Source of the DNA: a virus | Lineage: Duplodnaviria > Heunggongvirae > Uroviricota > Caudoviricetes | Virus record (IMG/VR): IMGVR_UViG_2512047041_000010 | DNA length: 41,896 nt | Direction: 5' to 3' (one strand) | Part shown: positions 953 to 39,808 of the stretch, piece by piece | Layout of the letters: each line of letters starts with the position of its first letter | How positions within the stretch are numbered: position 1 is the first letter of the stretch | The notes under the pieces: generated by a model | Databases searched by the model: none | What the model was told of the DNA's origin: nothing | Seen by the model: the letters and a program-made list of their open reading frames with translations, nothing else | Program-made: the position numbers and the translations under genes

Positions 953-1279
953 ATGACTAAAAATACTCGTTTTTCCCCCGAAGTCCGTCAACGGGCAGTC
1001 CGTATGGTTCTGGAAAGTCAGGGCGAATATGACTCACAATGGGCGACAATTTGTTCCATTGCCCCAAAGATTGGCTGTACACCGGAGACTCTGCGTGTCT
1101 GGGTACGCCAGCATGAGCGGGATACCGGAGGCGGTGATGGCGGGCTCACCACCGCTGAACGTCAGCGTCTGAAAGAGCTGGAACGTGAAAATCGTGAACT
1201 GCGCCGCAGTAACGATATCCTTCGCCAGGCTTCCGCTTATTTTGCGAAGGCGGAGTTCGACCGCCTCTGGAAAAAGTGA
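953..1279 (+). CDS. IS3-family transposase OrfA (HTH/leucine-zipper part)
   Basis: 108-aa ORF beginning [19 protein letters not shown], typical IS3-family OrfA; overlaps orfB start (ATGATG/TGA overlap at 1276..1279). Confidence 0.85.
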
Positions 1280-2166
1280 TGCCACTGCTGGATAAGCTGC
1301 GTAAGCTGTACGGGGTCGGACCGGTATGCAGTGAACTACATATTGCCCCGTCAACGTATTACCACTGTCAGCAACAGCGACATCATCCTGATAAACGCAG
1401 TGCCCGTGCGCAGCGCGATGACTGGCTGAAGAAAGAGATACTGCGCGTATACGATGGGAATCATCAGGTATACGGTGTGCGTAAAGTCTGGCGTCAGTTG
1501 TTACGGGAAGGAATCAGGGTAGCCAGATGTACAGTGGCGCGCCTCATGGCGGTTATGGGACTTGCCGGTGTTCTCCGGGGTAAAAAGGTCCGCACTACCG
1601 TCAGCCGGAAAGCCGTTGCCGCAGGCGACCGCGTAAACCGTCAGTTTGTGGCAGAACGTCCTGACCAGTTGTGGGTGGCTGATTTTACTTACGTCAGCAC
1701 ATGGCAGGGGGTCGTCTATGTGGCGTTCATCATTGATGTGTTTGCCGGATACATCGTGGGGTGGCGGGTCTCATCGTCTATGGAAACGACATTCGTGCTG
1801 GATGCTCTGGAGCAGGCGTTATGGGCCCGTCGACCGTCCGGCACAGTCCATCACAGTGATAAAGGTTCTCAGTATGTATCGCTGGCCTACACACAGCGGC
1901 TTAAGGAAGCCGGATTACTGGCATCAACAGGAAGTACTGGTGACTCGTATGACAACGCGATGGCGGAGAGCATCAATGGCCTTTACAAAGCGGAGGTAAT
2001 ACACCGTAAGAGCTGGAAAAACCGTGCAGAAGTGGAACTGGCCACACTCACGTGGGTGGACTGGTATAACAATCGACGATTGCTGGAAAGGCTGGGCCAT
2101 ACTCCTCCGGCAGAAGCAGAAAAAGCTTATTATGCTTCCATCGGAAACGATGATCTGGCAGCCTGA
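1276..2166 (+). CDS. IS3-family transposase OrfB (DDE integrase core)
   Basis: 296-aa ORF with DDE-type transposase features (WVADFTYV ... HSDKGSQY ... DNAMAES); recognised as IS629-like OrfB. Confidence 0.85.
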
Positions 2167-4708: not shown

Positions 4709-7700
4709 TTAACGTTCTTCCAGAGACTGAATCCGCTCTTTTATCTTATCCATTTCTCTGCGCTGCCATGCTGCCTCGATATAGAATAAGAGATCAGGTC
4801 TGACCCCCCATCTAGATCCTGCTGGCGTTATTTCAACGCGCTCAATGATGTCTTCCATTACCATCACTGGATTATCATCCTCATCAACAATGATGCTCCC
4901 GTCATTATCAGTCAGCGGCATTTCCCTTTGGCCAGTAATGACGTCATCATATACTGCGGGATAATCGTCATAGCAAAGAAAGGCATAGCGGCATGTTGTG
5001 CTTTCTTCTTCCATGAGTCCGTGAGAAATAAGAACATCACGAAGTTGCTGCGCGATTACACCATGATGTATCCTCGCCCCTTCTTCCCCCTTTATAGCGA
5101 CAGCGTTCAGCCATTTATAAGCGATATACCTGACGTCACCCCAGGCATCCAGCAATGCTTCGTCAGGAGAGACCGGCTCTGTCTTTAATGTTCCGTCACT
5201 GGTAACCACAGGATTGGAGCCAAGATAAACTGTCGAGAACCTGTTTCCCGGACCACCAAGAGCATTTACATTATCAAGATAAGGTTTAACATCTCCGTTC
5301 TCAAAAAGATGTTCGAGTGCGTTATATACCGCGCGACGTGGAGTACTGCTTCCGGAACCATGCAACGTTATCATTGCACCATCTGCTGAAGACGTTGTTT
5401 CACCGCCGCTAACGATTAATCTCTGAGCGGTAACATCATCAGACGGTACTTTCTTCGCAATAATGGCGTAATTACCCTCAAGTTTGACTTCCGCGCGAAC
5501 TTGTCCTGATGTACCTGCATGGACAGTCAGTGACTGGACGGCAACATCATCTGTGAAATCAACGGGTACAGGAACCGTCCTCACGCCTGACGTCGACATA
5601 AAAGTAGGAAGCGTTCTGTTAGGAGTGGCTCCGTAGACAAAATCCCTTGAAACAAATTCTTCCTGTTTAATTTTCACCCTGAAACAATACAAATCAGCCG
5701 GGTGACCATCGTGAACATAAGGATATTTTCTGTTGTTATCCCCTATGCTCCATGGGTTTAGAAAGTCTTCCCCACCGAAAATGTAGTACAGCCAGTTGTC
5801 TTTGATACAAACTGAACCAACACCAACCGCAGAGTTAACTATTCCGCCCTGATAAATCTGATCAGTAACATTAACCCACTCTACATTATCCAGACTCCAC
5901 TCATTGACGTTAACTCTGGTCATAAATGTTCTTGGATAATTTCCTGCATAACGGTTATCAGGCTCTCCTCCTTCCCACTCACCAAATGCGCGCTCACTGC
6001 CAAAAATAACCAGCTCATCGCCAACTTTGGCAAAAGGAAGGTTTGAGTGATGAACATTATTTGGGAAGCGAAGAGAATTCCATGATGTACCTAAATCAGA
6101 GCTTCTGTGCAATGAACTACCGGGTTGAGTACTTAATGTCCCCCTGGTCGTCAGATACAGAATGCCATCATAATATTTTACACATGGCTCAGATGCATTC
6201 GCCTCATATTCTGCAGGTATGCGTCTGCGAACAAAGCTACCAGGAGAACCGAAAGCATCAGAGAAATAGAGTATCCCAAGCTCGCGTGGACCAATATCAC
6301 CATTATGGTAGCCAACAGCAAAACTGTTATCGCTAATCGTCGCAAAACTGTGAATCTCAGTAACAGGAGTGCTTCCGTCAACAAAAGAAGGAATAGTTCC
6401 AAGACTGGTTTTTCTCCATGGTGACGAGTGAAATGATGTGCCAAAACTCCAGTATCTACCCTCGTTATTCTGATCCACATCCTGGGTATTTTGCGTCGTA
6501 ACTGTAAAGGTATTTTTATCAATAACAGTAGTCACCGTCATATTCCCGGTAACACCTGTAACACCAGAGTTTGAGAAGTTGACAAAATCACCAGCAAATA
6601 ATCCGTGATCAGTAATGCGAATATAAGCGACTTGCTGATTTGCTGCTTTCGTTATACCACCATAAACGCGAAGGCTGCGACTCATTGGGCGATCCCACAA
6701 CTCTGCAACCTGCAGTTTATTTCCGCTCACGGTCCGCGTCTCAATTACAGCAAAAAGGCGATTTCTGACAACCCCCATACTCATGCAGTGATAGTTAACT
6801 GTGGGATAGTTTTCATGTAAATCTGTAAGCCATTCCGGCGTTGTCCAGGTCTTCCCGTCATCTCCTGAGCGAACCCATGCAACATGGAGGTTATTTACAC
6901 CATGGCGGTCTCCAGCCATAAAAGGCGCATAGATGACATTGTCATATACAAACGTTTTATCCTGCGTCCAGGCGTTGTACCACGGTGTATCTGTAATTTT
7001 AAATAACTCTCCCTGGATAAAATCTTCAGAAGCATAAAAAAGAGGCTGGCCCGGTATTCTCTCAAATAAAAAACGAGCATTTTTAAATCGACTGACATCC
7101 GGAAGAGTTGATACTTTAAAAGTAAGCCCTAATCCGTCAATTTTATAACCTGGAGATGAGGCTTCAAGGCACGCGCTTATTGCAGTGGAATCGTCATTTA
7201 TACCATCACCAACAGCTCCAAAATCTTTGGGGCTAATAGCATCACGCATTTTATCCTGGAACGTTCGGTACACAGCCCCAGAACCATACTGAATAAACCA
7301 ACCAAAACCACCAACAACCCCGGCGATTGCAGCATCGACATAATTACGCATTGAGCGATTATTTACAGCGTCCTGCTCAAATGATGGATCTGCAAGGTTA
7401 GAAATTTTGTTTTGCTTTGCATCGTAATATTTTGCAAGCAAAGATGGTTTCATCAATGCACGTCTGAACCACCCAAAACATTGCTGGATCAGCATCGTCA
7501 GGTAGTCAAAGGCATCTTCATGCACTTCGGGGAAAAATTTTCCCTGATTGCGAAGGTCTGTCTCCTGCACTACATCAAGCACACGATCTATCGTAATTCG
7601 CCATCCAGTAGCAAGCGGAGACGGAAGAACCACAGAACCGCCACTATAAGTGCCCGCCCCAGTTACCGTATAACCGGTATCCAGAACCAATTCTGTTACG

Positions 7701-7828
7701 TTCCCGTTCAGGTCAGACACCTGAACAACCAGGTCTGATTTTCTGAAAATTCGAAAAGTATACGGAAACGATGTCGTAACGCCGTTACCGGTGTATTCGT
7801 TGTGGTCAACTTCGGTTGAGACCGTCAT
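4709..7828 (-). CDS. tailspike/tail fibre with sialidase-like beta-propeller domain and C-terminal peptidase S74 intramolecular chaperone domain (putative endosialidase)
   Basis: 1039 aa. N-terminal block MTVSTEVDHNEYTGNGVTTSFPYTFRIF recognised as a phage tail-fibre anchoring domain; two perfect Asp-boxes (SGDDGKTW, SSDLGTSW) and an xRIP motif (FERIP); C-terminus (SDGTLKTEPVSPDEALLDAWGDV...ARIHHGVIAQQL) resembles the self-cleaving chaperone of endosialidases and T5 L-shaped tail fibre. Confidence 0.7.
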   Translation of the reverse strand: MTVSTEVDHNEYTGNGVTTSFPYTFRIFRKSDLVVQVSDLNGNVTELVLDTGYTVTGAGTYSGGSVVLPSPLATGWRITIDRVLDVVQETDLRNQGKFFPEVHEDAFDYLTMLIQQCFGWFRRALMKPSLLAKYYDAKQNKISNLADPSFEQDAVNNRSMRNYVDAAIAGVVGGFGWFIQYGSGAVYRTFQDKMRDAISPKDFGAVGDGINDDSTAISACLEASSPGYKIDGLGLTFKVSTLPDVSRFKNARFLFERIPGQPLFYASEDFIQGELFKITDTPWYNAWTQDKTFVYDNVIYAPFMAGDRHGVNNLHVAWVRSGDDGKTWTTPEWLTDLHENYPTVNYHCMSMGVVRNRLFAVIETRTVSGNKLQVAELWDRPMSRSLRVYGGITKAANQQVAYIRITDHGLFAGDFVNFSNSGVTGVTGNMTVTTVIDKNTFTVTTQNTQDVDQNNEGRYWSFGTSFHSSPWRKTSLGTIPSFVDGSTPVTEIHSFATISDNSFAVGYHNGDIGPRELGILYFSDAFGSPGSFVRRRIPAEYEANASEPCVKYYDGILYLTTRGTLSTQPGSSLHRSSDLGTSWNSLRFPNNVHHSNLPFAKVGDELVIFGSERAFGEWEGGEPDNRYAGNYPRTFMTRVNVNEWSLDNVEWVNVTDQIYQGGIVNSAVGVGSVCIKDNWLYYIFGGEDFLNPWSIGDNNRKYPYVHDGHPADLYCFRVKIKQEEFVSRDFVYGATPNRTLPTFMSTSGVRTVPVPVDFTDDVAVQSLTVHAGTSGQVRAEVKLEGNYAIIAKKVPSDDVTAQRLIVSGGETTSSADGAMITLHGSGSSTPRRAVYNALEHLFENGDVKPYLDNVNALGGPGNRFSTVYLGSNPVVTSDGTLKTEPVSPDEALLDAWGDVRYIAYKWLNAVAIKGEEGARIHHGVIAQQLRDVLISHGLMEEESTTCRYAFLCYDDYPAVYDDVITGQREMPLTDNDGSIIVDEDDNPVMVMEDIIERVEITPAGSRWGVRPDLLFYIEAAWQRREMDKIKERIQSLEER

Positions 7829-7931
7829 GTTAAATCTCCAGATAGTCGCAGCACCCGTTGCGCCGCATATCTGGTTATTCTATTACCTGAAAAACCACAT
7901 ATGGATAGAAAGACTGTAAATACGAATAGAT

Positions 7932-7984: not shown

Positions 7985-8004
7985 TACTGTATAAATATAC
8001 AGTT
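7985..8004. promoter_or_regulatory. LexA (SOS) box TACTGTATAAATATACAGTT overlapping a putative promoter
   Basis: CTGT-N8-ACAG with an AT-rich spacer, 18/20 match to the E. coli consensus TACTGTATATATATACAGTA; lies 20 bp upstream of the ATG at 8024 and contains a TATAAAT -10-like element. Confidence 0.75.
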
Positions 8005-8360: not shown

Positions 8361-8440
8361 CGGGCACTGGCAAAATCCAGTGCCGGGATTGGCGTCCCGG
8401 GTTACTAAGTGGCGCATACCACGCCAGACGTGGTTTTTTT
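8361..8440 (+). ncRNA. putative small structured RNA upstream of the antirepressor gene (possibly c4/antisense-type regulator)
   Basis: No ORF; stem-loop GGCACTGG/CAGTGCC, second stem CCGGGA/TCCCGG, then intrinsic terminator CCACG-ccaga-CGTGG + TTTTTTT (8419..8440). Carries ACTAAGTGG, which recurs at the antirepressor RBS, with its complement CCACTTAGG in between. Boundaries are approximate. Confidence 0.3.
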
Positions 8441-8596
8441 ATGCGTTAAGCACAGCTATATCCGAATTATGGTGGGCTGGGCAGGGGTCCGAAAGGACGC
8501 CGGTACCACTTAGGCCGGTACGCCAACCTTGTCCAGTTCACCACCAGTAATTGGCGTTGCGGTGGTGATTAAAATCACTAAGTGGAGATAACCACC

Positions 8597-9307
8597 ATGG
8601 CTAATGCTCAAACTGCCATCTTCAAATTTGAATCTGTTAACCCTATCCGTTCCATCATTATCGATGGCCAACCATGGTTTGTAGCCCAAGACGTTTGTAG
8701 TGCGCTGCGTATCCAAAACGTCACCCAAGCACTTGAAAAACTGGATGATGATGAAAGGTCTATGTTCAACATAGGGCATGAACATCGTGCAATTTTTGAC
8801 AGCCGAGTAAAAGAGATCAACATTATCTCCGAGTCAGGCCTCTACACACTGATCCTCCGCTGCCGCGACGCAGTGACACCAGGCACTACCCCCTACCGCT
8901 TTCGTAAATGGGTTACAGGTGAGGTTCTTCCTCAGATCCGCCGCACCGGAAGTTACATTAAAAACTCGCTCCCGCAGGAAGAGCGCATAAAGATGGTTGC
9001 CGACCAGGTAGCCAGCGCCACAGCATCAGCAGTGATGCAGGCAATGAAGGTAGAGAACAAAACCTACAGCGCCCCGCTGAAGCCCGGCTACCGCAGCCTG
9101 ATTCACTCGCCGTCTGGTGTTCTCGGCCTGACGGAAAACTCACTGCTGATGAATCTGCTGAACCAGTTACAGGAAGACGGGCACGACGTATCGGGCGCGG
9201 CGGCGGAGGTGACCACCATGTTCTGCTACATCGTCGGTGTGAGTAAATGCCTGCGTGATATCCAGACCCACGCGGAATACATCAACGACAAGGCAGGGTT
9301 CTTCTGA
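8597..9307 (+). CDS. phage antirepressor (Bro-N N-terminal domain plus C-terminal Ant domain)
   Basis: Start at ATG 8597, preceded by SD GGAGA; N-terminal FESVNPIRSIIIDGQPWFVAQDVCSAL is Bro-N/KilA-N-like; C-terminus homologous to the 8024..8281 product. Confidence 0.75.
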   Translation: MANAQTAIFKFESVNPIRSIIIDGQPWFVAQDVCSALRIQNVTQALEKLDDDERSMFNIGHEHRAIFDSRVKEINIISESGLYTLILRCRDAVTPGTTPYRFRKWVTGEVLPQIRRTGSYIKNSLPQEERIKMVADQVASATASAVMQAMKVENKTYSAPLKPGYRSLIHSPSGVLGLTENSLLMNLLNQLQEDGHDVSGAAAEVTTMFCYIVGVSKCLRDIQTHAEYINDKAGFF

Positions 9308-10369: not shown

Positions 10370-10381
10370 GTGACATGTCAC
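10370..10381. repeat. perfect 12-bp palindrome GTGACATGTCAC (copy 1 of 3)
   Basis: Identical 12-mer also at 28088..28099 and 30353..30364; overlaps the stop codon of the minus-strand lipoprotein gene and abuts a GC hairpin. Confidence 0.8.
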
Positions 10382-26963: not shown

Positions 26964-27031
26964 ATCAATGACTCCGTACGCAATTAAATTATTACCAATT
27001 TAACCACATATGATTTATTTATCGTAGATAG

Positions 27032-27390: not shown

Positions 27391-27467
27391 GTGGCATTAG
27401 CTCAGTTGGACAGAGCAACCGCCTTCTAAGCGGTTGGTCGCAGGTTCGAATCCTGCATGCCACGCCA
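27391..27467 (+). tRNA. tRNA-Arg (anticodon UCU)
   Basis: 77-nt cloverleaf: acceptor GTGGCAT/ATGCCAC, anticodon stem ACCGC/GCGGT with loop CTTCTAA, T-arm GCAGG-TTCGAAT-CCTGC, encoded CCA end. Confidence 0.9.
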
Positions 27468-27663: not shown

Positions 27664-28083
27664 ATGAAAACAATTGATATGTTGGCTAAGTATCTAAATG
27701 AATGGCCATTAAAATATTCTCGTATCGTTCAGGCTGAAGACTGCGTTTTTTATGGCGTTTTTGCTGGTAATGAAATGCATTACGAAGTAATTCAGAGTGA
27801 GGGACTGGCCGGGTTAACTCTTAGCGAAGACCATGGTACTAGCGTTACGTTCCATGACTGGATAACAGCACAACGTTATGAAATGGAAAAAGGCGATGTG
27901 TTTGATATTTCTCGATCTGTTTACGCTAAAGCAAAAAGTGATAATGATTACATGAGCGAACACTTATACAACATGAAGTTACAATGCCTGCATGCGGCGC
28001 TTATTCAGAATGGGTACTTCGATAAAACAAGTGCCATCAATATTGCGGAAGCCATCAACGCTGGATTTAATGCCATTAAGTAA
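27664..28083 (+). CDS. hypothetical protein, 139 aa (AT-rich moron, no recognisable domain)
   Basis: SD AAGGTGAG; AT-rich codon usage unlike flanking genes; opposite strand to the late operon. Confidence 0.6.
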   Translation: MKTIDMLAKYLNEWPLKYSRIVQAEDCVFYGVFAGNEMHYEVIQSEGLAGLTLSEDHGTSVTFHDWITAQRYEMEKGDVFDISRSVYAKAKSDNDYMSEHLYNMKLQCLHAALIQNGYFDKTSAINIAEAINAGFNAIK

Positions 28084-28087
28084 CACC

Positions 28088-28099
28088 GTGACATGTCAC
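28088..28099. repeat. perfect 12-bp palindrome GTGACATGTCAC (copy 2 of 3)
   Basis: Five nt after the stop of the 27664..28083 gene, immediately before a terminator hairpin. Confidence 0.8.
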
Positions 28100-28130
28100 A
28101 AACAGCCAGCCGATGAGCTGGCTTTGTTTT
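28100..28130 (+). terminator. rho-independent terminator
   Basis: AGCCAGC-cgatga-GCTGGCT followed by TTGTTTT. Confidence 0.65.
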
Positions 28131-28173: not shown

Positions 28174-29649
28174 TTAAGCATAGGGATCGTAATCTGTGAT
28201 GGCCTTGCCTTGCTGGTTCTGCTGCCCGGGAATTCGCAGACGCTTCGACACAGGGAACGCAAACGTCAGCAGTAGCGCATCGCCTTTACCCGGCGAACGC
28301 CCAAGCCGCTCCTTGATATCCTCCTTCGGTTCGATAACGATTTTACCGTCCACGCGAACTTTGTACTCTGCCGCCGACAGGTCGTCTGCAGTTTCCTGGT
28401 CATCCAGCATGCCGCCCAGCCTCAGCCATGTCTTACATGAGTTGAACATCTCCCCACGCTTGTTAAGCATCTGCGGGTCAGTAGACGCGCCACCGAACGG
28501 AACAAGTTGCCATGTACGACCCCAGCCGTCACCGATTGACTTCAAACCGGTTCCGTAACCGAAGTCGATGAACACCGCGTCAGCCTGATACTGGTCTTCA
28601 AAGTCAGCGATACGCTTCGCCATAATCAGATCGTCGGTAGTCTTGTTGCCAGTCCACAGCACCTTACTGTGTAGCCCCTGCCGCAGGTATATCACAGCGT
28701 CATCAACGCCGGAGTATGCCGGGTCAACGCCGATTATCACCGGAGCATGTGCAACCTGCGCAGCGGTTACCACCCGTTTCATTGCCTCGTCAGTAAGACC
28801 GGTAGGGATAAACTGCAATTCAGATGCATCAGGGAATATGCCACGCACACGGATTTTAACGAAGTCGCTGTCTTCCCCGTAGTCATCAACCCATTTCTGC
28901 AACTGCTGTTTGTTGGTACCTTCCACCGTCCGACTGTCAATCTGCGCAGTTTTCCAGCGGTGTTTATACTTGCGGAAACATTCACGGAAACGTCCGGTAT
29001 TACGCGTCGGGTTTCCGAACGCCACCCAGATAATCTCAGTGTCTTCGTCCGTAAGCGCACCCTCAGCAACTTCCCACACCAGATCCGCAATGTTCGACGC
29101 TTCATCGAATACCACGATGATGCGTTTGCGCTCGTTGTGTAGTCCGGCGAATGCCTCAGTGTTGTGCTCAGACCAGGGGATTGCGTCAGCTCGCCACCGC
29201 TTGTCGTGCCCAGGATCATTGCTGTACATCGCAGTAGCGGTACAGGTAAACCAGTCTTTCGTGATAGCAAGGTTCGACCACTTGATAATTTCCGGCCAGG
29301 TCTTCGTTCGTAGCTGGTTGTCGGTGTTGGCGGTCACCACGACCTTACAATCCTCGCAAGTGGACATGCCCCAGTTGATCAGCATTGAGATGAATGCGGA
29401 TTTACCAATACCGTGACCAGAAGCGCGTGCCAGCATAAGCGGCTGATAGCGCGTCTCTGGATTCTGCAGGTGATCACGTATCTCTCGGAACGCATCAGCC
29501 TGCCACTGACGTGGGCCAGTAGCATGTGCCAGTTCAGTCCCCTCTTCCCCCCACGGGAACGCATAGAGGGCATAACCAAGCGGATCGTGAGTAAACCCTG
29601 CAATATCCTCGATCAACTGCTCTTCAGGAGATAACACTGTATCTGTCAC
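28174..29649 (-). CDS. terminase large subunit
   Basis: 491-aa ORF with ATPase region (GHGIGKS Walker-A-like) and C-terminal nuclease-like region; start overlaps the small-subunit stop. Confidence 0.85.
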   Translation of the reverse strand: MTDTVLSPEEQLIEDIAGFTHDPLGYALYAFPWGEEGTELAHATGPRQWQADAFREIRDHLQNPETRYQPLMLARASGHGIGKSAFISMLINWGMSTCEDCKVVVTANTDNQLRTKTWPEIIKWSNLAITKDWFTCTATAMYSNDPGHDKRWRADAIPWSEHNTEAFAGLHNERKRIIVVFDEASNIADLVWEVAEGALTDEDTEIIWVAFGNPTRNTGRFRECFRKYKHRWKTAQIDSRTVEGTNKQQLQKWVDDYGEDSDFVKIRVRGIFPDASELQFIPTGLTDEAMKRVVTAAQVAHAPVIIGVDPAYSGVDDAVIYLRQGLHSKVLWTGNKTTDDLIMAKRIADFEDQYQADAVFIDFGYGTGLKSIGDGWGRTWQLVPFGGASTDPQMLNKRGEMFNSCKTWLRLGGMLDDQETADDLSAAEYKVRVDGKIVIEPKEDIKERLGRSPGKGDALLLTFAFPVSKRLRIPGQQNQQGKAITDYDPYA

Positions 29650-30242
29650 TGATTACCATCCTGACGTTCTTTGAGTCGCTTCCTGGCTGCTGCTATGCGA
29701 TCAGCAATTGTCACATTCACATTAACATCCAGGCGTTCTTTGAATGCGTTGACGTCGACGTGCTTACCAATCAGTTCGAGGTTCTTCACCTTGTCAGGCC
29801 ATTTAATTTTTTTGAGGATTGTCTCTATCGAATCCTCGTTCATGTTCATGATGGTCGATGACAGATCAAAGCCGCTAAGCGTAGTGCGCCAGATTTTCGG
29901 CCACTCGCGGATTGGCTTAAGGCTCCCATCGTCGTTGAGGATGTCGATCACGTCCATCTGGTCGATCTCCACCAGGCGCATGAGAACGTAATCAGCACTG
30001 ACGCGCATTCGTTTGTTGCGCTCCTCCATCAACTCGGCAATCCGTTTTTGAATGCGTTCATCGCGCATCATGACACTGGCTTTAACTGCCGCTGTATTTG
30101 GGGAGAATCCTGCGTTAATCGCTGCCTGAGTCTGGTTTTCAGGCGTTTTGATGTATGACTGGCAATAAGCCTCCTGCATTGCTGTTAGTGGCTTAAATTG
30201 CGTTGATTTGCGTTTATAGGTTTTAGGTTCAGCAGGCATCAT
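29646..30242 (-). CDS. terminase small subunit
   Basis: Start taken at MMPAEPKTYK with SD GGTGG; DNA-binding-like N-terminus; directly upstream of the large subunit. Confidence 0.65.
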   Translation of the reverse strand: MMPAEPKTYKRKSTQFKPLTAMQEAYCQSYIKTPENQTQAAINAGFSPNTAAVKASVMMRDERIQKRIAELMEERNKRMRVSADYVLMRLVEIDQMDVIDILNDDGSLKPIREWPKIWRTTLSGFDLSSTIMNMNEDSIETILKKIKWPDKVKNLELIGKHVDVNAFKERLDVNVNVTIADRIAAARKRLKERQDGNQ

Positions 30243-30249
30243 AACCACC

Positions 30250-30278
30250 GTGGTAATAGTTACCGTTGTGGTAATAGT
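30250..30278. repeat. direct repeat GTGGTAATAGT x2 in the terminase small-subunit leader
   Basis: Identical 11-mers at 30250..30260 and 30268..30278, between an upstream terminator and the start codon. Confidence 0.6.
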
Positions 30279-30280
30279 AC

Positions 30281-30311
30281 CATGCAAAATAAAGCCGCCA
30301 TAGTTGGCGGC
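30281..30311 (-). terminator. rho-independent terminator upstream of the terminase genes (tR'-like position)
   Basis: On the minus strand GCCGCCA-acta-TGGCGGC followed by TTTATTTTG. Confidence 0.55.
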
Positions 30312-30352
30312 AGTATTCAAAACCCATCAAATTCATCATGCATAATCTACTC

Positions 30353-30364
30353 GTGACATGTCAC
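30353..30364. repeat. perfect 12-bp palindrome GTGACATGTCAC (copy 3 of 3)
   Basis: Overlaps the stop codon of the Cys-rich gene, about 40 bp upstream of the terminator before the terminase genes. Confidence 0.8.
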
Positions 30365-30699
30365 ACTATTAATTTCGTTTCATGCCAGCCTTTAGTCACC
30401 CAGCATTGCGAGTCACCATTACACGGGCATGAATTAACGGGAACTCTCTCGCCGCACTTACCGCAAAGTTTTCTGCTGATCGATTTTATACGCCCGCGCA
30501 CACGTGCATCATCCTGGCGGATCAGTAACGCTATATACTCACCAAATTCGTAAGGCGCACGCCCGGGGCGACGCGCGGCACAGTTACGCTCAAGCATTTC
30601 AATTTCCTGAGCATCAAGCACAATCTCCAGCTTACGCACACCAGATGCAGCTTGTCTGGCTCTCTGAGCGGCTTTGCGCTCTGCTGCTGATTTAGCCAT
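30361..30699 (-). CDS. Cys-rich zinc-ribbon protein, candidate late-gene regulator
   Basis: 112 aa; basic N-terminus; C-terminal CGKCGERVPVNSCPCNGDSQCW; position immediately upstream of the terminator and terminase genes is where lambdoid Q-like regulators sit. No His residues for an HNH motif. Confidence 0.45.
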   Translation of the reverse strand: MAKSAAERKAAQRARQAASGVRKLEIVLDAQEIEMLERNCAARRPGRAPYEFGEYIALLIRQDDARVRGRIKSISRKLCGKCGERVPVNSCPCNGDSQCWVTKGWHETKLIV

Positions 30700-33516: not shown

Positions 33517-33595
33517 TTTACCCCTGAGGTAATTAAAAACCACATAATACACGAAATCAATAGATTTTAGAATATTTTATTACCCAACAGGTAAT
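33517..33595. promoter_or_regulatory. internal promoter region with two operator palindromes (TTTACCCCTGAGGTAAT at 33517..33533, ATTACCCAACAGGTAAT at 33579..33595)
   Basis: Two TTACC-N5-GGTAA sites bracket a minus-strand promoter-like sequence (-35 TTGATT, 17-bp spacer, -10 TTTAAT); a minus-strand terminator (GCGCGATAGCGC + TTTTTTT, about 33596..33625) lies just upstream after the P-like gene. Confidence 0.5.
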
Positions 33596-33631
33596 TATCA
33601 AGACGTAAAAAAATGCGCTATCGCGCTGGTA

Positions 33632-34432: not shown

Positions 34433-35229
34433 GCTTCAGGGCTGTTCCAGTGTGGAACGTTGTTATCAGGTAATGTTGATTGCTTCTGTCTGCTAATCTG
34501 CAGCCTCCTTGCCAGCTTCTGCTCCCACTGTGCCTGATGGTATGCCTTACCCTCAGCCATCCAGTAAATTCTGAACTCTGCAAGTTCCTGTGCCGTTGGC
34601 AGACTGTCCAGGTAGATCCCCTGCAATGAGCTTTTCCGAAGAAAGTCATCTGATGGTTGCCATTGTTCATGCATGACAAATTTGCCTAATTGCCCTGGCC
34701 CACCAGGAGGAACAAAGTTATTCATCACGGCGTTGTTTGCGCCGGGGTCATGAGACACAGAATCCCCGTTTTTTGTCCTGCTCTCCCTCTCTTGGTTAAA
34801 TGACTGGTTATATGACTGGTTCTGGATCCCGTTTTTGGGATCATTCAACATCCCGTTTTTGGGATCATTCAACATCCCGTTTTTGGGTATATTCCCGTTT
34901 TCGGTAACATTACCGTTTTCGGGTTCATTACCCCCTTCCCGGTTGCCTTTAATGTTCCCGTTTTTGGTTATATTAAGAGAGAAAACCCGCACTCTTTTCG
35001 TCGCTCCCTTTCTCTCTCCGGTATCTGAAATAAGCCCCATTTTCATGAGCGATATAAGTCCGGCCTGCACGGTTTTTTTATTCAGGCAAGTGTCTTTAAC
35101 GAGGCGTTCTATGCTGGGGTAGCAGAGGTTATATTCATCGGCTCTGTCAGCCATCGAGAGCAGTATGAGCTTTAATGACGAGCTACCTGGATCTGTCTCC
35201 CAGGCCCAATCTGTTGCATGTCTGCTCAT
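34414..35229 (-). CDS. replication initiator O-like protein (contains the origin iterons)
   Basis: SD GGAG upstream; winged-helix-like N-terminus; central Asn/Gly-rich repeats encoded by the iteron array; translationally coupled to the P-like gene. Confidence 0.6.
   Translation of the reverse strand: MSRHATDWAWETDPGSSSLKLILLSMADRADEYNLCYPSIERLVKDTCLNKKTVQAGLISLMKMGLISDTGERKGATKRVRVFSLNITKNGNIKGNREGGNEPENGNVTENGNIPKNGMLNDPKNGMLNDPKNGIQNQSYNQSFNQERESRTKNGDSVSHDPGANNAVMNNFVPPGGPGQLGKFVMHEQWQPSDDFLRKSSLQGIYLDSLPTAQELAEFRIYWMAEGKAYHQAQWEQKLARRLQISRQKQSTLPDNNVPHWNSPEAWEDFL
34760..34975. repeat. origin-like iteron array inside the O-like gene
   Basis: Six to seven copies of TCCCGTTTTTGGGA-type repeats (two identical 24-mers ATCCCGTTTTTGGGATCATTCAAC at 34826 and 34850) plus direct repeat TGACTGGTT x2; arrangement like ori-lambda iterons within O. 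Confidence 0.65.
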
Positions 35230-35244
35230 GATTAATCTCCGCTA

Positions 35245-35445
35245 TCAGCTTGAATGTTGTGGGGAGGAATTAATCATGATCTGCTTAATCTCTGCCCTGA
35301 TACGACGGTTTGATTCCATGGTGCACTCAACACAGTGTCCGTTGTAAACCCAGCGTTCACTGTCATGTCCGTGCTTACATGTTTTTCCGGTGTAGTAGCG
35401 TTTAAGTCCGCGCTTTGCGGCATCAATACGTGTAATGATTTCCAT
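35245..35445 (-). CDS. small zinc-finger protein in cII-equivalent position
   Basis: Start taken at MEIITRIDAAK (SD AGGG); motif CKHGHDSERWVYNGHCVEC; lies between the Cro-like gene and the O-like gene. Confidence 0.45.
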   Translation of the reverse strand: MEIITRIDAAKRGLKRYYTGKTCKHGHDSERWVYNGHCVECTMESNRRIRAEIKQIMINSSPQHSS

Positions 35446-35524
35446 GGTAAGCCCTGTTATTAGTATTGGGATTACGGTCATTTTGTGCTGACACAAAAAA
35501 AAGATCAACCAGATTTGGTTTTTT

Positions 35525-39508: not shown

Positions 39509-39808
39509 GTGAGAAAGTTAAGCCGACTTGAAAAATATCACATGAACAAGGTTTCAATGCGCAGCCCTTCAAAGGTTGTTGCCGTTACTCCTGCGGCGAT
39601 AGAGATCGAAAAACGCGCGATTGAAAGAGAGAAAAAAGGGCAGTTCCGCATTGCCGCCCACCTTTGGCTTCAGTGTATGGATGTTGCTTCTGGTGATGTT
39701 GAACGTGCAAGGATCGCGGTTCGCAGGGACCAATGTATCACAAAAGGTAACGGCCTTCGCCGTGGCGACTATAGCGGCATAGGATGTTGTGGGGTGGTTT
39801 ATGACTAA
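39509..39808 (+). CDS. hypothetical protein
   Basis: 99-aa ORF, possibly GTG-initiated; start uncertain (alternative ATG at 39542). Confidence 0.35.
   Translation: MRKLSRLEKYHMNKVSMRSPSKVVAVTPAAIEIEKRAIEREKKGQFRIAAHLWLQCMDVASGDVERARIAVRRDQCITKGNGLRRGDYSGIGCCGVVYD

Follow-up and report, generated by a model that had tools for sequence, protein, structure and literature searches.

Epsilon15-like temperate podoviruses serve as reporter and typing phages for O157 and Salmonella. At the junction of their early and late genes, two elements are already annotated in epsilon15, namely a hairpin labelled in its RefSeq record as a rho-independent terminator and sites labelled as 'repressor' binding sites, including one 20 nt before the gene for the terminase small subunit (terS). 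The paper on Escherichia phage vB_EcoP_ZX5 covers solely the repressor, the antirepressor and the integrase, and no account of late-gene switch-on in epsilon15-like phages was found in the literature searched. Other described systems that bear on this junction are the lambda Q/pR'/tR' module, the repressors with a ribbon-helix-helix (RHH) fold, and the host protein MatP with its site matS, the 13-bp GTGACRNYGTCAC with an RNY spacer (PMC3603311). Here we analysed the junction in a stretch of 41,896 nucleotides, the IMG/VR record IMGVR_UViG_2512047041_000010 (hereafter the window). The window matches vB_EcoP_ZX5 at 98.6% identity and also matches TL-2011b and phiV10 and, more distantly, epsilon15, Tyrion and SPN1S; on the basis of these matches it is an epsilon15-like (Uetakevirus) temperate podovirus prophage. 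We found that the last early gene, encoding a 112-aa protein, is paired with a 12-bp palindrome, GTGACATGTCAC, which holds the gene's own stop codon and is very likely the operator of its product. This pairing of the epsilon15 gp49/N15 gp46 family with an operator in the gene's own stop codon appears to be new, as does a predicted repressor-controlled extended -10 promoter for terS.

The palindrome, which the sequence-only reading had pointed out, occurs exactly three times in the window (at 30353, 28088 and 10370; sites A, B and C), where about 0.003 copies are expected from the length. Epsilon15 carries three exact copies at syntenic positions (39612, 2142 and 19517), although its terS DNA is only about 80% identical to that of the window, and Tyrion shares both internal copies. 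The Pectobacterium myovirus ZF40, whose protein is 68% identical, likewise carries the exact sequence three times, once 3 nt past the stop of that gene; gene 46 of N15 (37% identical) terminates in GCG-TGA-CTGGTCAC, with two more copies elsewhere in N15, and Vibrio phage K233, with a protein of 31% identity, contributes three GTGACRCGTCAC sites. Among the close relatives (80 IMG/VR loci, 67 of them with readable sequence at the site), the palindrome begins 1 nt before the stop codon or at most 10 nt after it in 65 of the 67. In distant relatives, which are 30-45% identical to N15 gp46, GTGAC-NN-GTCAC was located at the stop or within about 270 nt after it (73 of 76 loci), and where it lies at the stop the offset is mostly -1, with a few cases at +8 or +9. 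Overall, the site overlaps or closely follows the gene's own TGA in about 95% of some 140 related loci. The half-sites are invariant and the central dinucleotide is free (AT, CT, TG, GT, TT, AG, AC). The C-terminal tails of the proteins vary (..KLIV, ..NINTP, ..AIKA; in the window ...ETKLIV followed by the TGA at 30361-30363), yet the TGA is kept within the site, and G is always the third base of the last codon, which preserves G-TGA-C. Since the arms are invariant and the centre is free, we infer that a symmetric dimer reads specific bases of duplex DNA, and the absence of covariation argues against an RNA stem. On these patterns of conservation, GTGACATGTCAC is very likely the operator of the 112-aa protein; the 12-mer was found in no paper of the literature searched.

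The sequence-only reading had described the protein as a Cys-rich zinc-ribbon protein encoded just upstream of terS and lacking obvious homology to Q, and this description held. Cys79, Cys82 and Cys99 are invariant among 122 homologues, Cys40 is invariant or nearly so and Cys91 is more than 90% conserved; four of these residues (C79-x2-C82 plus C91 and C99) form a zinc-ribbon- or knuckle-like cluster of putative metal ligands. No noteworthy Pfam (E ≤ 0.01), NCBIfam or PDB sequence match was obtained for the protein, and there was no Q, MatP or Ogr_Delta family among the Pfam matches of the 122 family members (E ≤ 1); for want of an Ogr_Delta Pfam match, the protein is not placed among the Ogr/Delta late activators. 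At the family level, weak matches were detected to the model of the LexA-regulated protein YbfE and to PF10723 (CopB/RepB-type RHH replication regulators/repressors), the latter in a few Vibrio homologues, and PHROG 536, to which the protein belongs, is annotated as 'transcriptional regulator'. An AlphaFold model built from the 122 sequences (predicted local distance difference test score, pLDDT, 77) contains a basic helix (residues 5-18), an extended segment (22-28) and two helices (30-42 and 52-75), followed by the Cys knuckle (79-99) and a short C-terminal helix. A structural comparison with Q-family antiterminators had been proposed earlier; structure-based comparison revealed no Q-type fold but the beta-alpha-alpha core of RHH proteins with a preceding basic arm. 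On this model, the 112-aa protein is predicted to bind DNA through an RHH fold to which a zinc-ribbon-like module has been added; it is not a member of the Q family. RHH proteins are mostly repressors. The PHROG 536-type family is compact (236 clusters at 50% identity among 1.84 billion representatives); it spans podo-, sipho- and myoviruses and linear-plasmid prophages, with enterobacteria, Vibrio and Aeromonas as hosts.

All elements and genes relevant to the junction are on the minus strand, in the order O-like replication gene (DnaT/HTH_36), lambda-P-like gene, DUF1064, Ea22, DUF551, NinX, the 112-aa open reading frame (ORF), terS, terL and portal. This gene order places the finding exactly at the junction of the early-right operon and the late packaging operon, with the 112-aa ORF as the last gene of the former, directly before the late genes. 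We are highly confident of the following anatomy: the last early gene, its operator, a variable spacer, an intrinsic terminator, an extended -10 element operated by the prophage repressor (Rep), and the ribosome-binding site (RBS) and start codon of terS (Table 1). Every element of the junction is thereby given an assignment. Family searches revealed no homologue of a phage RNA polymerase, of Q or of N among the early ORFs tested; the lack of a phage RNA polymerase had been stated before. An Rfam scan gave nothing within the junction interval, and PADLOC gave no defence-system match.

Table 1. Features of the junction and related sites in the window
Feature	Coordinates	Strand	Basis or position
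Gene for the 112-aa protein, predicted RHH plus zinc-ribbon (PHROG 536; epsilon15 gp49/N15 gp46 family)	30361..30699	-	ORF and translation
Palindrome A, GTGACATGTCAC, very likely operator of the 112-aa protein; holds the gene's TGA stop	30353..30364	.	Three exact copies, synteny, stop-codon linkage
Palindrome B	28088..28099	.	4 nt past the stop of the plus-strand 139-aa moron, 4 nt before the moron terminator (28104-28123), 75 nt beyond terL
Palindrome C	10370..10381	.	Overlaps the stop of the last structural-block ORF; 1 nt before a minus-strand terminator (10369-10352 plus U-tract)
Intrinsic terminator closing the early-right operon, GCCGCCA-ACTA-TGGCGGC then UUUAUUUUG	30285..30311	-	Terminator scan, RNA fold, conservation
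Extended -10 TGGTACTAT (TGnTAnnnT), putative terS promoter	30274..30282	-	Conservation; last T is the first base of operator 1
Predicted Rep operator 1, TTACCACAACGGTAA; holds the second 11-mer	30260..30274	.	Motif over-representation; 'repressor' site at the same place in the epsilon15 record
Rep operator-like site 2, TTACCACGGTGGTTA (one mismatch); overlaps the terS Shine-Dalgarno, holds the first 11-mer	30242..30256	.	Motif scan
terS, terminase small subunit, first late gene	29646..30242	-	Pfam Terminase_2, E=1e-29; annotated terS in related phages
Rep, prophage repressor gene, presumed binder of TTACC-N5-GGTAA	35981..36565	+	HTH_3 match; position as epsilon15 repressor; flanking operators

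Read in the direction in which the adjacent gene is transcribed, each of the three palindromes in the epsilon15-like phages has a stop codon before it and an intrinsic terminator after it. At site A the order is the gp49-family gene, the palindrome, 21-41 nt and the terminator. At site B the palindrome follows the stop codon of an opposite-strand moron by 4-28 nt and precedes the moron's terminator by 1-7 nt, a layout also present in epsilon15, Tyrion and five divergent loci. Site C, where the palindrome overlaps the stop of the last structural-block gene and a strong terminator comes 1-3 nt later, is syntenic in epsilon15 (19517) and Tyrion (20377), with 2-3 nt to the terminator in those two. 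The terminators at B and C work one way only: at B, late-direction transcripts pass the hairpin before they come to the palindrome, after which there is no minus-strand terminator, and at C the plus-strand (ant-side) direction is without a U-tract. The bound protein would therefore be the sole obstacle for a late-direction polymerase at B and for one arriving at C from the plus-strand antirepressor side. A sigma-70-like promoter was not detected ahead of the portal block. Between terL and that block we also observed a tRNA-Arg(TCT) at 27391-27467 (+) and the 139-aa ORF at 27664-28083 (+), for which no family match was obtained; together they make up an opposite-strand moron cassette with its own terminators.

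The intrinsic terminator that the sequence-only reading had placed shortly downstream of site A is borne out by a terminator scan, by the RNA fold (stem 30311-30294, U-tract to 30285) and by its retention, with one compensatory pair, in five divergent relatives. The stretch between palindrome and terminator was less consistent with that reading, which had seen in it a -10-like element and a short terminated leader. This stretch is conserved neither in sequence nor in length: the spacer measures 41 nt in the window, 21-23 nt in epsilon15, Tyrion and the loci L162 and L170, and from 21 to more than 200 nt overall. The -10-like element is a 9/12 consensus match (GTGACA-18-CATGAT), and the 9-kb region contains 7 such promoter-like matches, fewer than the 12.0 ± 3.1 of shuffled sequence; the element is not beyond chance. 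An ORF of about 60 aa, with its RBS directly after the palindrome, takes the place of the leader in 22 of the 67 close relatives, and Klebsiella phage ST512-KPC3phi13.3 has a LexA-box (SOS) promoter and an 86-aa ORF there. The same arrangement, with a LexA-box promoter (TACTGTTTAAATATACAGTA) and an 86-aa ORF between palindrome and terminator, was observed in Klebsiella and Enterobacter relatives (L008, 3279-3345; L155; L167), and is predicted to be a moron inducible by SOS that lies where early and late genes meet. Several divergent epsilon15-like phages carry one or two ORFs that split the gene and palindrome from the operator and terS; in those split loci the palindrome goes with the gene, and terS retains the operator and the extended -10.

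After the terminator the sequence continues as GCATGGTACTATTACCACAACGGTAACTATTACCACGGTGGTTATG, the ATG of which is the terS start at 30242. Here the sequence-only reading had noted two 11-mers (GTGGTAATAGT; 30250-30260 and 30268-30278) as direct repeats. They are indeed identical and 18 nt apart; however, each is the left half of an inverted repeat, TTACC-N5-GGTAA, rather than a direct repeat as such. With one mismatch allowed, the window contains 13 copies of this motif; 0.85 would be expected, and none of 100 shuffles gave more than 3. Epsilon15 has 15 copies. Copies surround the repressor gene and the leftward promoter (35863, 35911, 36623 and 36685; pL, pR/pRM), and one fills the spacer of the region's best promoter-like site (TTGATA-16-TAAAAT, 10/12; 33574-33601). 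Further copies precede terS (30242 and 30260), the portal block (27054) and the tailspike block (7933). The epsilon15 repressor is annotated with reference to the SPC32H repressor structure. From their over-representation, their position at the immunity promoters and their overlap with promoter elements, the TTACC-N5-GGTAA sites are predicted to be operators of the prophage repressor. Site 2 is conserved in epsilon15 (TTACTTCGGTGGTAA) and less so in more distant relatives. At the extended -10, the 'n' varies among close relatives (G, A, T) with TG and TA..AT kept, and in at least 14 divergent epsilon15-like loci the hexamer itself changes (TACTAT, TATAGT, TATGAT, TAGTAT) with the TGnTAnnnT frame and its fusion to TTACC kept. 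Because this conserved TGnTAnnnT abuts operator 1, we infer promoter activity here, and terS appears to have its own Rep-controlled promoter downstream of the terminator, the two operators lying over its -10 and start region. Since the operators overlap this conserved element after the terminator, terS need not depend on read-through. A second repeat, ATATGTGGTT, was observed 33-42 nt downstream of repressor operators before several gene blocks (27002-27011, 7893-7902 and 33538-33547 (-); in epsilon15, L010, 2989, 24752 and 35954). At 7867-7902 it pairs with ATATCTGGTT in a 10-bp stem with a GGTAAT-containing loop, and the epsilon15 record names one place of this type an RNase III site.

Relatives of the gene and its site occur in other genomic contexts. 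Many IMG/VR loci have the order gene, palindrome, small hairpin, AlpA/Xis-like gene and integrase, at the distal end of a leftward early operon, and phage Chlobot has a similar gene-xis-int type context; in many relatives the site lies about 40 nt before the xis start, with no terminator. In N15 the gene has a mid-operon position among the early-right genes, well past the phage's own Q-like gene, and one site is 620 nt inside repA and another just past the last gene of that operon. Two of the ZF40 sites lie inside gp08 and inside a cII-like gene, upstream of recombination and replication genes. In a P2-like Yersinia phage the homologue follows gpA, and a separate small regulator occupies the Ogr position after gpD. 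Given the xis-int, N15 early-operon and P2-like gpA contexts, the gene is not consistently a neighbour of the late operon. In Vibrio K233, sites lie about 20 nt before the terS start and about 290 nt before the holin, where the order is palindrome, 230-nt leader, terminator and holin, with the terminator abutting the holin ATG. The small hairpin of the xis-int loci (L120, L128, L139, L157 and others) reads CCTG-N6-CAGG, lies about 20-35 nt after the palindrome and before the xis RBS, and shows compensatory variants (CCCG-N6-CGGG).

We tentatively propose, with a confidence somewhat short of calling it probable, that the RHH protein is a boundary gate that acts as a roadblock of RNA polymerase and as an autoregulator. 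On the anatomy given above, Rep would shut the late packaging genes directly in the lysogen, and the terminator would insulate them from early transcription. According to the gate proposal, RHH dimers would bind the palindromes between a unit's last stop codon and its terminator (A, B and C), block RNA polymerase and thereby reinforce or complete boundaries where a strong terminator is lacking. Such a block would cut read-through into the genes downstream, that is terS in the window and, among the relatives, xis-int, repA of N15 or the replication genes of ZF40. Moreover, a polymerase stalled upstream of the stop-bearing site would yield stop-less mRNAs of the protein's own gene and hence negative autoregulation; an operator that holds its regulator's own stop codon is unusual and lends itself to such a simple model. 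We favour the gate because the RHH class consists mostly of repressors, some sites are within coding regions, the xis context is free of terminators, the geometry of site B leaves a gap that the protein could fill, and the operator overlaps the stop codon. Several observations weigh against it. An early protein that blocks in front of late genes is counter-intuitive, and a roadblock at site C would cut short the transcript of the last gene in the structural block. The overlap with the stop codon could stem from compactness and common descent instead of autoregulation. The terS promoter is predicted at the level of a consensus, and the portal block is without an upstream sigma-70-like promoter, so that read-through between late blocks may be needed. 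In the epsilon15-like phages the palindrome is upstream, in the late direction, of three late blocks, which fits a positive late regulator too, and the same holds against the gate for the K233 sites before terS and holin, with a terminator abutting the holin ATG.

These last points lead to the main rival, a Q-analogous antitermination, which we regard as unlikely. Here the palindrome-bound protein would transfer to, or contact, a polymerase passing or pausing at the terminator and make it resistant to termination, so that the early-right operon and then each late block would read on. The gene is placed as late regulators are, as the last early gene, terminators adjoin all three palindromes, and in the late direction a palindrome precedes each of the terS-terL, portal-to-gp18 and tailspike-lysis blocks, of which the portal block has no promoter-like site before it. 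The K233 order of palindrome, leader, terminator and holin, together with a further site before terS and no annotated Q, is also in line with this reading. Contact with the polymerase could be made by the conserved Cys module and the C-terminal helix, and small DNA-binding antiterminators other than Q are known (AlpA, PMC7969949). However, there is no conserved promoter or pause element beside the palindrome, and a symmetric site confers no direction. The palindrome at site B precedes only the terminator of the opposite-strand moron, the spacing at site A varies from 21-41 to more than 200 nt, and terS has its own conserved predicted promoter. N15, a phage with a Q of its own, carries a homologue, others stand before xis without a terminator, some sites are within coding regions, and the RHH fold is mostly that of repressors. 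Thus, what stands of the lambdoid layout proposed in the sequence-only reading is the early/late junction, a predicted DNA-binding protein tied to the palindrome and a terminator before terS; a conserved promoter and leader and a Q fold were not found, terS has a predicted promoter of its own, and homologues lie in non-late contexts.

It is improbable, in our estimation, that the protein is an architectural or bridging protein like MatP, with dimers on two or three dispersed palindromes joined via the zinc-ribbon/C-terminal module so as to loop the phage genome or to interfere with host MatP/matS processes. The clades that carry MatP overlap the hosts of the family (Enterobacterales, Vibrio, Aeromonas), which counts in favour of this idea, and there are two to three dispersed sites per genome in five phage types. 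The conserved extra domain could serve oligomerisation, and the half-sites GTGAC/GTCAC are identical to those of matS (PMC3603311). On the other hand, the spacer has 2 nt and not 3, so that no site is a matS, and a 5-bp half-site match could be due to chance. MatP homology was rejected: it was detected neither by BLASTP (E=12) nor by hhalign (probability 0.1), in a comparison in which one large homologue search gave only near-identical E. coli MatP sequences, nor by a MatP Pfam match in the 122 members. The model has no four-helix bundle or coiled coil, and bridging leaves unexplained why one site always holds the gene's stop codon. The half-site identity is a lead, and cross-talk with host MatP/matS is possible.

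That the palindrome is not this protein's site at all, being bound by another phage or host factor or acting as an RNA hairpin at mRNA 3' ends and merely travelling with the gene, is very improbable, since its position in transcribed 3' regions before terminators and the small hairpin predicted in the RNA fold are outweighed by a linkage that holds across podo-, sipho- and myovirus backgrounds sharing almost nothing else, by more than 140 loci in which the 'loop' NN varies and the stem shows no covariation, by the weakness of a 4-bp RNA stem, and by the fact that short palindromes of this kind are typical for RHH dimers.

Other roles of the palindrome were considered and rejected. As a promoter -35 element, GTGACA matches TTGACA in 5 of 6 positions, yet a conserved -10 was seen neither at the three sites of the window nor in relatives. 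Were it an activator site upstream of the terS promoter, it would lie at varying distances (about -74, -90 and more than -250) without helical phasing. As a genome end (cos/pac), it is contradicted by the three copies per genome, and the nearby GenBank starts result merely from annotators cutting the circle at terS. An RNA hairpin or nut-like element was considered in view of the Arg-rich N-terminus of the protein, yet the stem shows no covariation while the loop varies.

Several features elsewhere in the window were observed in addition. An ALIL pseudoknot (Rfam RF01497, 116 bits) at 1234-1350 (+), an IS3-family frameshift element within ORFs at 953-2166, points to an IS element near the left end. 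The tailspike (4709-7828, -) is a complete endosialidase (End_N_terminal, beta-propeller, beta-barrel and tail-spike domains and a Peptidase_S74 chaperone), and for this reason the prophage should target polysialic-acid (K1-type) capsules. Downstream of a LexA box, CTGTATAAATATACAG, at 7987-8002 come an isrK-like Hfq-binding RNA and a C4 antisense RNA of the P1 type (8364-8440 and 8465-8548, +) and, directly after these, the gene of a Bro-N-domain protein, presumably an antirepressor (8582-9307, +); this suggests a layered control of antirepression by SOS and antisense RNA. Inside the O-like replication-initiator gene, two identical 20-nt hairpin units, TGGGATCATTCAACATCCCG, 24 nt apart (34836-34879, +), look like origin iterons. 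An 87-aa early ORF after the cro-like gene (35245-35508, -) has a Cys/His motif, CKHGH...CVEC, and no Pfam match, and is a second small putative zinc-binding protein of the early-right operon. In the leftward early operon, a homologue of PerC-family activators (39509-39808, +; E=6e-7) is a possible positive regulator of phage or host genes.

The locus thus presents a widespread, uncharacterised phage protein family paired with a precise putative 12-bp operator, next to a packaging promoter that is predicted to be controlled by the repressor, and the protein-operator pair could serve as an orthogonal regulatory part. It is a speculative suggestion, which we consider doubtful at present, that PHROG 536 represents a new class of RHH/zinc-ribbon boundary regulators with a matS-like palindrome in their own stop codon, controlling the passage of polymerase at unit ends either as a DNA-tethered, terminator-proximal antiterminator whose fold is not that of Q or as a stop-codon roadblock with autoregulation by way of stop-less mRNAs, with MatP/matS cross-talk as a possibility. 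In comparison with lambda Q/pR'/tR', the locus shares a last early gene whose small, Cys-containing product is predicted to bind DNA, a DNA site directly downstream of that gene, a terminator before the late genes and the inheritance of gene and site as a cassette. It differs in that the protein has neither the sequence family nor the fold of Q, that no conserved promoter or sigma-dependent pause accompanies the palindrome, that this site is a perfect palindrome present three times per genome and sometimes inside genes, and that the late operon has a predicted repressor-controlled promoter past the terminator. With MatP/matS it has in common an RHH protein, a GTGAC...GTCAC palindrome and few dispersed sites on the replicon; unlike matS, all phage sites are 12 bp with a 2-nt spacer, and the protein, unlike MatP, lacks detectable sequence homology to it and, in the model, the four-helix bundle and coiled coil. 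The TTACC-N5-GGTAA sites, 13-15 per genome at pL, at pR and before each late block, resemble epsilon15/SPC32H-type operators and the 'stoperators' of mycobacteriophage L5; unlike the latter, they are symmetric and few, and at terS and 33580 they overlap promoter elements, as classical operators do. The predicted beta-alpha-alpha fold, the basic arm and the putative short symmetric operator are like those of RHH repressors (P22 Arc/Mnt, CopG, plasmid R1 CopB/RepB PF10723, omega and the RHH antitoxins). The 112-aa protein differs from these in its added conserved four-Cys zinc-ribbon-like module and C-terminal helix, and in a putative operator that lies not at a promoter but at the 3' end of the gene, where it holds the stop codon, with further copies beside terminators.

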